A program made the position numbers and the translations under genes. The notes beneath the pieces were generated by a model, which saw only the letters and a program-made list of their open reading frames with translations, did no database searches and was not told the origin of the DNA. From positions 723,361 to 787,360 of the forward strand of contig CAVRFH010000004.1 of the NCBI GenBank assembly GCA_963720355.1: a stretch of 64,000 bases of DNA, in the 5' to 3' direction. The number at the start of each line of letters is the position of its first letter. Positions within the stretch are counted from its first letter, which is position 1. The stretch is from an uncultured Chloroflexia bacterium (GTDB lineage: Bacteria > Chloroflexota > Limnocylindria > Limnocylindrales > CSP1-4). This document shows positions 34,564 to 46,647 of the stretch, one piece after another.

Positions 34564-35794
34564 ATGAGAAAGACCAAGGTCGGGGCGCTTGCCGCCGTCG
34601 CGATGCTCGCCTTTGCGGCGTGCAGCGGCGGACGGCGGCGGGACAGCGAGCAAGGGCGAGATCGAGATCTGGTCCTCGCTGCCGCGCCAGGGTTCGAGCA
34701 AGGCCCAGACCGACACGATCGTCAACGCGATCAACATGGCCATCGAGGAGAAGGCCGGCGGCAAGGCCGGCGGTTACACGATCGTCTACAAGGACGTCGA
34801 CGACTCCACGGCCGCCGCCGGCAAGTGGGACGAGGCGACCGAGATCAAGAACGCCAACGACGCCGTCGCCAACGACAAGCTCGTGGCGTACATCGGCACG
34901 TTCAACTCGGGTGCTGCCAAGCTGTCGATCCCGATCCTCTGCGGTAAGGGCATCGTGATGATCAGCCCGGCCAACACGGGCGTCGGCCTGACCAAGCCCT
35001 TCGAAGAGGGCGAGCCGGACAAGTACTACCCGAACGGCTGCAAGAAGAACTACACGCGCGTCATCCCGGACGACGACCTCCAGGGCGAACGCTGGCGCGA
35101 AGTGGGCGTCCCAGCTCGAGCGCAAGAACGTCTACATCCTCGACGACACCGAGGTCTACGGCAAGGGCATCGCCGACGTCTTCGATTCGAGGGCTGCGGA
35201 GTATGGCCTGACCGTCCTCGGCCGCGATGGCATCGACGGCAAGGCGTCCGACTACAAGGCCCTGGCCGAGAAGATCAAGGCCACCAACCCCGACCTCGTC
35301 TACTACGGCGGGATCACCCAGAACAACGCCGGCCAGCTGTGGCGCGACCTGCGCGACGCGATGCCGGACGTCAAGCTCATGGGTCCCGACGGCATCTACG
35401 AGGGCGAGTTCCTCGAGGCTGCCGCGGCAGCCGCGGAAGGCAGCTACATCACCTTCGGTGGCGTGCCGCCGGACCAGCTGACCGGCAAGGGCGCGGAGTT
35501 CGTCGACAAGTACACGGCGAAGTACCCGAACAACCCGATCGAGGGCTACACGGCCTACGGCTACGAGGCGGCGCAAGGTCGTCCTCGCGGCCATCGAGCG
35601 GGCTGCTGCCAAGAACCCGGCCGACGTCGCGGCGCTCCGAGCCCTCGTCCTCGACGAGGTCAAGGCGACGAAGGACTACGACGGCGTGCTCGGCACGTGG
35701 AGCTTCGACGCCGACGGTGACACCAGCCGCGACGACGATGTCCGGTCTGATCATCACCGGCGGCGAGTTCAAGTTCGACACCGTCATCGAGTAG
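34564..35794 (+). pseudogene. livK: Branched-chain amino-acid ABC transporter substrate-binding lipoprotein (LivK/LivJ-like) with four frameshifts
   Basis: AGGAGGAG ribosome-binding site, then MRKTKVGALAAVAMLAFAACSGG; the protein can be followed through four frame changes near 34630, 35095, 35578 and 35740 and ends ...GEFKFDTVIE stop. Confidence 0.75.
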
Positions 35795-35893
35795 CTCCCT
35801 CCTTCGGAGAGGAACAACGGCCGGCCGCTCGGCAGCGCGTCGAGCGGCCGGCCACCATCCACTGACCTCCGGCACTACCGTGAGGAGAGGGCG

Positions 35894-36833
35894 TTGGAGG
35901 AGCTGGTCAAGGCGCTGACGATCGGCCTGACGAACGGCTTGGTCATCGCGCTGATCGCGATCGGGTACACCCTCGTCTACGGCATCCTCGAACTCATCAA
36001 CTTCGCCCACGCCGACGTGTTCATGCTCGGCACGGCATTCACCTTCTTCGCCACCGAGCTCATCGTCGGCGCCCTGGGCATCCCGGCGATCGGCGCTCCT
36101 CGCGCTGCTCCTCACGTTCATGGCGCTGCCGATCGTCATGCTACTGACCGCGGGGATCAATGCCGGCATCGAACGCGTGGCCTATCGGCCCCTGCGCAAC
36201 GCCCCGCAGATCTGGCCCCGCTGATCAGCGCGATCGGGATGTCCTTCGTGCTGCAGAACATCGGCCTCGTCCTGCTCGGTCCGTCACAGAAGGCGGTCGA
36301 GCCCGTGCTTCCGCGGACCGATCTCGTCACCTTTCCGAGCGGCGCGTCGTGGTTCGGGGTCGACGAGCGTCGATGGTCCTCTCGGTCACGATCCCGCTCC
36401 TGCTCGCCCTGCGCTGGTTCGTCGGCAGGACGCGGCAGGGCAAGGCGATGCGGGCCACCGCCCAGGATCGCGAGGCGTCCGGCCTGATGGGCATCGACGT
36501 CAACCGGACGATCTCGCTGACCTTCCTCATCGCCGGCGCGCTGGCCGGTGCGGCCGGGCTGGTCGTCGCCCTGTACTACGGCCAGACGTTCTTCCAGTTC
36601 GGCTTCCAGTTCGGCCTGCTGTCATTCACGGCCGCGGTCATCGGCGGGATCGGCAACCTGACCGGGGCCACGCTCGGCGGGATCGTCATCGGCCTGATCG
36701 CCGCGATGTCGGACCGGTTCCTCGAGGCGAAGTGGACACAGCGTCATCGTCTTCTCGCTCCTGATCCTCGTCCTGGTCTTCCGGCCCGACCGGGCTCCTG
36801 GCCGAGAAGGCAGTCGGAGCGTGCCTGACATGA
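35894..36833 (+). pseudogene. livH: Branched-chain amino-acid ABC permease LivH with about four frameshifts
   Basis: MEELVKALTIGLTNGLVIALIAIGYTLVYG, then LivH-like pieces in alternating frames, ending ...VLVFRPDGLLAEKAVGACLT stop, which overlaps the livM ATG. Confidence 0.7.
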
Positions 36834-38218
36834 CGAGCGCCGTCCGCGCGCCGAGACCGTCGATCCCCAACCCGCTCGCCGGGATGGACGACCGGCGGCG
36901 GCAGCTGGTCCTCCTCGGCATCGTCGCGCTCGTCGCGATCGTCTACCCACTGGTCTACCGATCGCTGGAGTCGGCGGCCCCGTTCATCCCATGGCCGGGC
37001 ACCGCCGTCCTCATCTACTGCGCGACCTTCGCGATCCTGGCGCTCGGGCTGAACATCGTCATGGGCTTCGCCGGGCTGCTCGACCTGGGCTACGTGGCGT
37101 TCTACGCGATCGGCGCCTACACGACCGCGTTCCTCGCCTCGCCCCACTTCGGCATCCACATCAGCTGGTGGATCGTGGTCTGGCATCGCGGTCGGCCGTC
37201 GGCGGCCGTGTTCGGGATCCTGCTCGGCGCGCCCGACGCTGAAGCTGCGCGGCGACTACCTGGCCATCGTGACCCTCGGATTCGGCGAGATCGTCCGACA
37301 TCGTCTTCCGCAACCTCGGCGACTTCACGCTTCGCCCTGCCGGCCTTCCTCGGTGGCGCGATCCTGATCGGCCCGAACGCCAACCTGACCGGCGGCAACG
37401 TCGGGCATCAACCCGATCGACCCGCCGACCATCCCGATACCCGGGCCATGGGGCAACCAGATCGTGTTCTCCAACCAGAACCCGATCGCGTCGTTGGTAC
37501 CTGGTCCTGGCGCTGCTGGCCTTGACCTATCTTCGATCTGCATGCCGCCTGCGCGACTCCAAGCTCGGTCGCGCCTGGATGGCCATCCGCGAGGACGAGA
37601 CCGCGGCGGCCGCGATGGGCATCAACACCGTCACCACGAAGCTGCTGGCGTTCTCGCTGGGCGCCAGCTTCTCGGGCTTCGCCGGGCGCCTTCACCGGGG
37701 CCTACCAGACGGCGATCTTCGCGGAGAGCTTCAACTTCAACGTCTCGATCCTCGTGGTGTGATCATCATCCTCGGCGGCATCGGCTCGCTGCGCGGCGTC
37801 GTCATCGGCGCCTTCGCGGTGCCAGTACGTCAACCAGACGCTGCTGCGCGTTCCTCGGCGACAACGTCCTCAACGCCCCGATCAACGCGCTCGGCGCTGC
37901 GACGGGCATCGAGCTGCTGCGCGACTTCAAGCCTGGTCACCTACAACTACCTGATCTTCGGCATCGTGCTCGCCGATCATGATGATCAACCGGCCCGAGG
38001 GCCTGTTCCCGGTCGAGGCGGCCAAGGCGGAGATGCACGGCATCGGCGTGGCCGCGGAGGTGACACGGCCGGCTCGTCGGACGAGCTGGCCGTCGCCGAG
38101 GAGACTCGAGGTCGGTCCGAGCTCGAGGAGGCGCCGCTGCCCGATCCGACGCTCCGACAGCGCCGAGCCGCCCGCCGGAACGCCGACCCGGAGCCGCGAC
38201 GAGGAGCCGCCGGCATGA
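36830..38218 (+). pseudogene. livM: Branched-chain amino-acid ABC permease LivM with multiple frameshifts
   Basis: N-terminal LLDLGYVAFYAIGAYTTAF is canonical, and later LivM pieces (IILGGIGSLRGVVIGAF, LIFGIVLA..MINRPEGLFP) lie in other frames; the 3' end is approximate. Confidence 0.6.
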
Positions 38219-45511: not shown

Positions 45512-45513
45512 CG

Positions 45514-46144
45514 TCACGCCTCGTCGGCCTCCGGTGCTCGACCCGCGCCGTAGACCTCGGGCTTGAGCACGCCGACGAAGCGCAGGTTGCGGTAGACCTC
45601 GCCGTAGTCGAGGCCGTAGCCGACCACGAACTGGTCCGGGATCTGGAAGCCGATGTAGTCGACCGGGATCTCGACGAGCCGACGGGCGGGCTTGTCGAGC
45701 AGGGTGCAGATGCGCAGCGACCGGGGGTTCTTGCCGCGCAGGTAGCGGATCAGGTAGTTGAGCGTCAGGCCCGGTGTCGATGATGTCCTCGACGATGAGG
45801 ACGTCCTCGCCCTCGATGCTCGCCGACAGGTCCTTGAGGATCCGCACGAGGCCCGACGACTCGGTCGCGTTGCCGCCGTACGAGCTGACCTCCATCAGGT
45901 CGATCCGGAGCGGCAGGTCGATGGCGCGCATCAGGTCGGCCATGAACGGCAGCGAGCCCTTGAGCACCGACACGAGGGTGAGCGGCCGGCCCGGCGTAGT
46001 CCGCCGCGATCCGGGCGCCCGAGCTCGGCGACCTTGGCCGGCGATCTGCTCCTCGGACGAGCAGGATCTCGCCGATGTCGGCGTGCAGGTCGACCAGGCG
46101 GGTCGCTCATCGGCCGCCGACCTCGGCTCGTGTCGGTCCGGCAC
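45514..46144 (-). pseudogene. hpt: Hypoxanthine-guanine phosphoribosyltransferase with three or more frameshifts
   Basis: [38 protein letters not shown] and the PRPP-binding [11 protein letters not shown] are intact, but the C-terminus ([27 protein letters not shown]...VVGYGLDY) is in the -1 frame after an extra G at about 45790, and the N-terminus is also shifted. Confidence 0.7.
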
Positions 46145-46289
46145 GGGGTCGCCGGTCGCCGGGTCCGGCGCCGGCCCGTCCGATCAGGCCGGCCGTCCGC
46201 GCGGCGCCCGGCGCACGGCGGCTCGAGGGCTGCGCCCGCGCGTCCGGCGGCGGTCACGGCGAGATCGACGGCGTAGGGCAGGGCGACCT

Positions 46290-46647
46290 GGCCCGACGAG
46301 CCGGACAGCGCCGTCGACCAGGGCGATGCTTGCCGTACTTGAGCATCAGCGCCCGGAAGTCGCGCGCGTAGAAGAGCTTGATGTTGATCGCCGGGATACA
46401 GCTCGCGCAGCCGGCGCAGCTTGCGGTTCTTCTTGCGCACGAGCTTCTGGCGCAGCGTCGTCATCTCGAGGTACAGGTCGAGGTCGGGCAGGTAGAAGTC
46501 GGGCGAGAAGCTCTCGACGACCGCGCCGTCGAGGTTCCACAGGATCGGGAACGTGTGCGGCTCGTACTCCCAGCGGACTGCATAGAAGTCGAGGATGCGG
46601 GCCATCTCCGCCTCGCTGGCATGGGCGAACGGGGTGCGGGGTTCCAT
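46290..46647 (-). CDS. Conserved hypothetical protein with a PD-(D/E)xK-nuclease-like motif, with one frameshift
   Basis: MEPRTPFAHASEAEMARILDFYAVRWEYEPHTFPI...DFYLPDLDLYLEMTTLRQK, then a shift to AINIKLFYARDFRALMLKYG; the family call is tentative. Confidence 0.35.

Follow-up and report, generated by a model that had tools for sequence, protein, structure and literature searches.

A 12.1-kb stretch of the 64,000-nucleotide (nt) window analyzed here, the window being the whole piece of DNA at its full length, carries the liv operon, an FtsX-type ATP-binding cassette (ABC) transporter, hpt and their neighbors, and every one of these genes is interrupted by frameshifts. We found about 110 such events and consider it very probable that they are errors of the consensus assembly rather than mutations in the organism. 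The original prediction, made from the letters alone, was right that the frameshifts are there, although its count of about 35 in 12 kb was three-fold low. It had left open two readings, pseudogenization and a region-specific assembly or polishing error, and our results favor the latter: the insertions and deletions (indels) are biased towards insertion, the corrected genes have no stops and a normal ratio of nonsynonymous to synonymous substitution rates (dN/dS), relatives assembled from short reads are intact, and relatives assembled from long reads show the same signature.

Frameshifts in the liv-hpt stretch

The main approach was a custom frameshift-tolerant aligner of protein to DNA, run on the window with the proteins of a syntenic locus from a short-read assembly (comparison locus L006). 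It placed about 110 frameshifts between 34,634 and 46,388, that is, about 9 per kb, against one in the roughly 20 kb of flank that was checked. Given all events in the window, their concentration in this stretch is about 100-fold, with a binomial P of about 1e-59. Counted kilobase by kilobase (1, 3, 6, 11, 7, 7, 11, 13, 18, 11, 8, 8 and 6), the events follow a dome-shaped profile whose densest part is the FtsX-type permease gene, with 18 events within 42-43 kb. A codon-usage Viterbi model, with Lon, ClpB and further long genes of the window as its training set, agrees with the aligner. Between about 34.6 and 46.6 kb it changes coding frame each 50-200 nt, as does the phase of G+C (GC) content at the third codon position, and its segments translate as successive pieces of LivK, LivH, LivM, LivG, LivF and the ABC system. 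In LivF, the ABC signature and the Walker B motif lie in different frames. Applied as a control to nine genes of four short-read relatives, among them the permease at 56-66% identity, the aligner reported no event at all, and its false-positive rate is negligible.

Lists of open reading frames (ORFs) are not evidence by themselves, because long spurious ORFs are common at the GC content of the window (about 70%). We rejected ORF length as a guide: at 70-78% GC, long ORFs in the wrong frame abound, and a 564-amino-acid ORF (43467-45161) lies for the most part outside the coding frame.

The genes of the stretch, their frameshifts and the Pfam matches of the corrected proteins are as follows.

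34564..35791 (+), livK-type substrate-binding lipoprotein: four 1-nt insertions, at about 34634, 35088, 35575 and 35729; Peripla_BP_6 8-327/343
35903..36825 (+), livH permease: 6 frameshifts; BPD_transp_2 4-269/269
36827..38196 (+), livM permease: 12 frameshifts; BPD_transp_2 5-266/269
38235..39035 (+), livG ATPase: 7 frameshifts; ABC_tran 2-137/137 and BCA_ABC_TP_C
39042..39750 (+), livF ATPase: 6 frameshifts, one of them between the ABC signature and Walker B; ABC_tran 1-136/137
39795..40334 (-), CGNR zinc-finger gene: 2-4 frameshifts in the N-terminal half, at about 40290 and 40196/40145; zf-CGNR 1-43/44
40378..43531 (+), FtsX-type ABC permease of about 1,030 amino acids: 48 frameshifts; FtsX 2-114/120
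43544..45010 (+), ATPase with two tandem nucleotide-binding domains: 11 frameshifts; two ABC_tran stretches
45069..45526 (-), small membrane protein: 6-7 frameshifts, judged against seven references
45529..46103 (-), hpt (hypoxanthine phosphoribosyltransferase): five 1-nt insertions, at 46057, 46041, 46019, 45991 and 45771; Pribosyltran 5-157/158
46114..46653 (-), conserved ORF of a family that Pfam leaves unassigned: 3 frameshifts, at 46388-46400, 46327 and 46311-46317

The positions of these events depend little on the reference used. In livK the same four sites, one of which lies in the signal peptide, were obtained against four references, and in hpt the same insertion sites were obtained against eight. 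Seven further references reproduced the event positions in hpt, the membrane-protein gene and the last ORF, whose frameshifts are the final events of the stretch. The CGNR gene (39.8-40.3 kb), missing from the gene list that we started from, was assessed against five references. All but one of the gene identities proposed earlier were confirmed by Pfam on the corrected proteins; the exception is the last ORF, described as PD-(D/E)xK-like, for which a Pfam search of the corrected protein (46114..46653) returned no hit. Across the permease and the tandem ATPase, where more than 10 shifts had been announced, about 59 were found.

Spectrum and context of the indels

In the nine main genes we typed 104 events: 80 insertions of 1 nt, 10 insertions of 2 nt, 13 deletions of 1 nt and one deletion of 2 nt. 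Insertions account for 90 of the 104 (87%) against 14 deletions; all typed events measure 1-2 nt, with no larger out-of-frame indel among them. The single inserted base is G in 43 cases, C in 31, A in 3 and T in 3 (92% G or C). A check that does not depend on the aligner, a multiple alignment of the DNA that included nine clean relatives, gave the same picture, with insertions private to the window of 1 nt (n = 42), 2 nt (n = 10) and 5 nt (n = 1) against five 1-nt deletions.

About 40% of the single insertions lengthen a run of 1-3 bases, and the context C[G]GGC recurs. Several of the indels had been assigned to G/C homopolymers. This holds weakly, for example at a 5-base run in the CaiB gene, but such runs are not the main context. 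Long homopolymers cannot explain the events, because G/C runs of at least 5 occur at only about 0.4 per kb in the stretch, too rarely for some 110 events, and because the distribution of run lengths in the dense stretch is the same as in its flanks and in the orthologous regions of relatives. Within the stretch, event density tracks GC content. As a sole cause we rejected GC content, since the segment at 30-32 kb has about 76% GC and yet is clean.

Constraint on the corrected genes

Once the frames are corrected, 3,479 aligned codons contain no in-frame stop, and the proteins match their Pfam families end to end. Measured against L006, dN/dS of the corrected genes ranges from 0.13 to 0.36 per gene and matches, gene by gene, that of the intact orthologues in L007 and L021. 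Per 1000 columns that are invariant in seven relatives, the dense stretch has 22.3 private amino-acid changes and the clean flank 23.0. Neither measure reveals a relaxation of purifying selection. The lesions are 1-2-nt indels unaccompanied by an excess of substitutions, and their correction restores full-length, stop-free, constrained ORFs; a mixed, deletion-biased set of lesions with nonsense mutations, as pseudogenes would show, is not what we see.

The same genes in related genomes

A search of species-representative genomes with the frame-stitched LivK identified metagenome-assembled genomes (MAGs) of Candidatus Limnocylindrales (Chloroflexota) as the nearest relatives, the best LivK identity being 89%. 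Many of their loci are syntenic with the window over about 26.9-46.5 kb, at a DNA identity of about 78%. By their SPAdes/MEGAHIT contig names, five comparison loci come from short-read assemblies (L003, L006, L021, L025 and L016). Eight others (L001, L002, L005, L007, L009, L013, L032 and L044), with names of the form MFD..., are Nanopore-only and stem from the Microflora Danica project, whose genomes were assembled with Flye and given one round of Medaka, with no short-read polishing (PMC12313526).

The two groups differ. Four short-read assemblies have no frameshift in the nine genes; the orthologues, which the original prediction had proposed to check in the closest complete genome, are intact in every short-read relative. 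In the Nanopore-only relatives the same genes have from 0 to about 36 frameshifts, again with a bias towards insertion. The most affected is L044 (CAWEHL010000001.1, 10001-21219), whose orthologous region of 11 kb has about 36 frameshifts, typed as 34 insertions and 3 deletions. L009 has 8, confined to livH-livF, and L013, L002, L001 and L032 also carry such shifts. These events fall at sites unrelated to those of the window: 8 of 59 lie within 2 residues of a window event, against a chance expectation of about 15%. Lesions of one kind are found at unrelated sites in the long-read-only assemblies and at no site in the short-read ones. For the permease, public data contain more than 100 orthologues, each encoded as one ORF of about 1,034 amino acids. 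The best matches in the collections searched stand at 89% identity for LivK and 69% for the permease; the more distant relatives do not share the lesions of the window. Nanopore bins below about 40-fold coverage are reported to need polishing, as indels fragment their gene calls (PMC9262707).

Some further observations concern these loci. A few sites are affected in two or three independent long-read assemblies (L001, L009, L013), namely permease residue ~774 (window ~42695) and livF residue 154 (~39503). Such recurrence at codons that vary among relatives hints at errors that depend on context or on the mixing of alleles. The genomes of L001 and L009 also contain second loci, L010 and L017, where a LivK paralogue has 76-82% identity to the query; paralogous liv loci in the clade could draw mis-mapped reads during polishing. 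Several syntenic contigs (L027, or DATNFQ010000126.1, with a DNA identity of about 76%; the one encoding protein P0057; L033, L045 and L046) are recorded as Patescibacteria/Saccharimonadales, Eisenbacteria, Polarisedimenticolia or Acidimicrobiales, and are probably mis-binned or mislabeled.

Gene content of the region also varies in the clade. The CGNR gene between livF and the FtsX-type permease is present in L001-L003, L005, L007 and L009 and cleanly absent in other relatives (L006, L013, L016, L019-L024, L035), a presence/absence polymorphism of about 620 bp (window 39760-40380). The permease and the tandem ATPase (window 39754-45100) form an insertion specific to a Limnocylindrales subgroup, because in more distant relatives (L015, L018, L031, L033, L034, L040, L045, L048) livF is followed directly by the membrane-protein and hpt genes.

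Flanks and other events in the window

Two blocks on either side of the dense stretch are clean.

26885..33200 (-), FAD oxidoreductase, thioesterase, holB-like gene and arginine/glycine (R/G)-rich tail: no frameshift against references
49700..61299 (+), phosphoesterase, K+ transporter, two TrkA-like genes, Lon, DnaJ-like gene and ClpB: all intact

The freedom from frameshifts that had been ascribed to the flanks was borne out, with zero events against references at 26.9-33.2 kb and with lon and clpB intact, each of their products giving one end-to-end NCBIfam match. The CsoR and histidine kinase genes are likewise without frameshifts against references. From 46.7 to 54.2 kb there is no event except an isolated 1-nt insertion at about 49,528 in an rsmG-like gene (48.9-49.7 kb), which was reproduced with four references; a possible second event near it, at about 48,885, appeared with one reference only. 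Just outside the upstream block that had been described as free of shifts, an NYN-domain protein is separated from its R/G-rich tail by a robust 1-nt insertion at about 33,291. In relatives this protein (window 31711-33700, minus strand), with its arginine/glycine-rich low-complexity tail, is a single ORF of about 650-690 amino acids. Apparent events at 28,051 and 33,664 were discarded as artifacts of reference N-termini that extend too far.

A smaller cluster of frameshifts lies upstream.

13497..16948, second cluster: about 12 frameshifts in the C-terminus of a DUF885 gene, a hisA-like gene, two cyclophilin genes and a pyridoxal-phosphate (PLP) decarboxylase gene

About 10 shifts had been claimed at 13.6-16.9 kb; frame switches gave about 12, and the claim is upheld by stitched proteins that match Pfam families continuously across the junctions (His_biosynth 2-221/228, Pyridoxal_deC 3-370/375, DUF885 1-527/532 and two Pro_isomerase matches). 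Outside this cluster, the stitched CaiB protein (5.8-7.0 kb) also gives a continuous, full-length Pfam match. Its single shift (window 6250-6293), which had been placed at a G5 run near 6293, is indeed there: it is of the deletion type, adjoins CCCGGGGGCCGG and is among the few events of the window at a 5-base run. The segment 18110-21004, counted by the codon model only, consists of short pieces that change frame and strand. It contains an ABM-like ORF and a TetR gene in which a shift is probable at about 19,035; in an ArsR and SRPBCC pair, shifts lie at about 20,207 and 20,526.

Discussion

The window most likely belongs to a long-read-only MAG of a Candidatus Limnocylindrales bacterium. Over about 12 kb its consensus was probably poorly supported: very few reads may have covered the stretch, reads from several co-existing strains may have been piled together, or polishing may have missed it, with low local coverage or mixed strains as the likely causes. 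The sequence shows about 1% of spurious 1-2-base insertions, most of them of G or C, and hardly any substitution errors. Every insertion breaks the frame, and its deletion restores an ordinary gene under selective constraint. The dome-shaped density fits a coverage valley that reads enter from anchors on both sides.

A contribution from mixed strains is plausible. High microdiversity has been reported for the Microflora Danica soil datasets (PMC12313526). In the livG gene of L009, the sequence GCC[AG]AAC looks like a splice of two alleles, CAG AAC as in L007 and GCC GAC as in L006, and some events of the window likewise resemble splices of two alleles found among relatives. A variable column lies beside the insertion in 54 of 58 cases, where 68% would be expected, in a test that is biased by the placement of gaps next to mismatches. 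There is no sign of a chimeric contig, or of a stretch from a foreign lineage: the boundaries of the stretch bring no change in the pattern of identity to eight relatives.

Genuine pseudogenization, in which reductive evolution would have inactivated the liv transporter, the FtsX-type ABC system, hpt and their neighbors, is very unlikely. It is true that the frameshifts are in the sequence, that every gene of a contiguous block devoted to transport and salvage is affected, and that the wider group can do without at least part of the block, as more distant relatives lack the FtsX/ATPase pair. In bacterial pseudogene decay, however, about 1% of neutral indels is expected to come with several percent of substitutions, with nonsense codons and with deletions of many sizes. 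None of the 3,479 codons is a nonsense codon, and there are neither large deletions nor out-of-frame deletions of several bases. Mira, Ochman and Moran are said to have concluded in 2001 that this decay is biased towards deletion, whereas 87% of the events here are insertions. The several percent of neutral substitutions that decay would have brought are missing too, dN/dS and private substitutions being the same as in intact orthologues and in the clean flank. Finally, the short-read relatives are all intact, and those from long reads carry the signature at unrelated sites. Not one of our tests, including the dN/dS check that the original prediction had proposed, came out in favor of the reductive evolution that it had put forward as one of its two readings.

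One could also think of a real but very recent and localized burst, in which error-prone synthesis or repair, or a recombination tract, added G and C over about 12 kb before substitutions could accrue. The contiguity of the stretch, its dome-shaped density, the nearly pure insertions and the lack of a substitution excess would all suit such an event. Yet the insertion-biased pattern recurs in several independent Nanopore-only assemblies as well as in the second cluster of the window, and both point to the method and not to biology. Sampling, moreover, would have had to follow almost immediately on the simultaneous loss of about 11 genes in a cell. To our knowledge, no mutational process adds single G/C bases at about 110 places within 12 kb and leaves no substitutions. 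We regard this scenario as exceedingly improbable. Tolerance of the frameshifts through programmed ribosomal frameshifting or transcriptional slippage, for which the full conservation of the corrected frames is the sole favorable point, appears effectively refuted by the sequence contexts and has hardly any chance of being correct: recoding as it is known relies on a single defined site in a gene or on a few, whereas up to 48 shifts occur here in one gene, at sites that share no common slippery heptamer or long homopolymer and where the orthologues are in frame throughout.

Three points weigh against assembly error as the cause. First, the events are biased towards insertion and lie mostly outside long homopolymers, unlike the textbook Nanopore pattern of homopolymer deletions; for this atypical pattern we rely on the sister Nanopore assemblies, which share the insertion bias. 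Second, the events are sharply confined to one region, for which GC content alone, given the clean segment at 30-32 kb with its 76% or so, does not account. Third, the collections searched yielded no assembly of the same species, the near-identical genome that a comparison of the shifts would call for. Exact look-ups of the ClpB, DnaJ-like and vWA proteins returned no record. A scan of Joint Genome Institute (JGI) metagenomes with the corrected LivM gave a best match of only 84% identity, and a search of 5.8 billion proteins with the corrected permease one of only 69%.

Assembly error nevertheless remains, in our view, very probably the right explanation. The cluster of frameshifts is not a biological feature, and the liv transporter, the FtsX-type ABC system and hpt almost certainly work in the organism. 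The genes of the dense stretch should not be called pseudogenes. Automated annotation would return about 11 pseudogenes or dozens of fragment ORFs, and metabolic reconstructions or claims of "genome reduction" for this Limnocylindrales lineage would be wrong. The problem is shared by some public species-representative genomes of the clade, L044 being an example. Because the errors are so strongly clustered, quality scores computed over a whole genome can hide stretches that are locally unusable.

Three known systems invite comparison. Clusters of pseudogenes left by reductive evolution, such as those of Mycobacterium leprae or of recently host-restricted symbionts, resemble the stretch in having adjacent frameshifted genes with transport and salvage functions. 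They differ from it in that here there are no stops or large deletions, the indels are biased towards insertion, selection is unrelaxed and the neighboring blocks are intact. Mosaics produced by the collapse of strain heterogeneity offer another analogy, through the splice-like events, the variable columns beside insertions and the high microdiversity of soil, all of which is suggestive only. A further parallel is with the indel artifacts of assemblies made from long reads only (Nanopore or PacBio continuous long reads). Such frameshifts are measured by the IDEEL test and corrected by proovframe or by short-read polishing (PMC9262707). In common with them, the stretch has indels of 1-2 bases, fragmented gene calls and corrected proteins of full length, and events of this kind are present in the Nanopore-only relatives and absent from the short-read ones. 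What sets the present case apart is its strong bias towards insertion, the position of most events outside long homopolymers and their roughly 100-fold concentration in a single 12-kb stretch.

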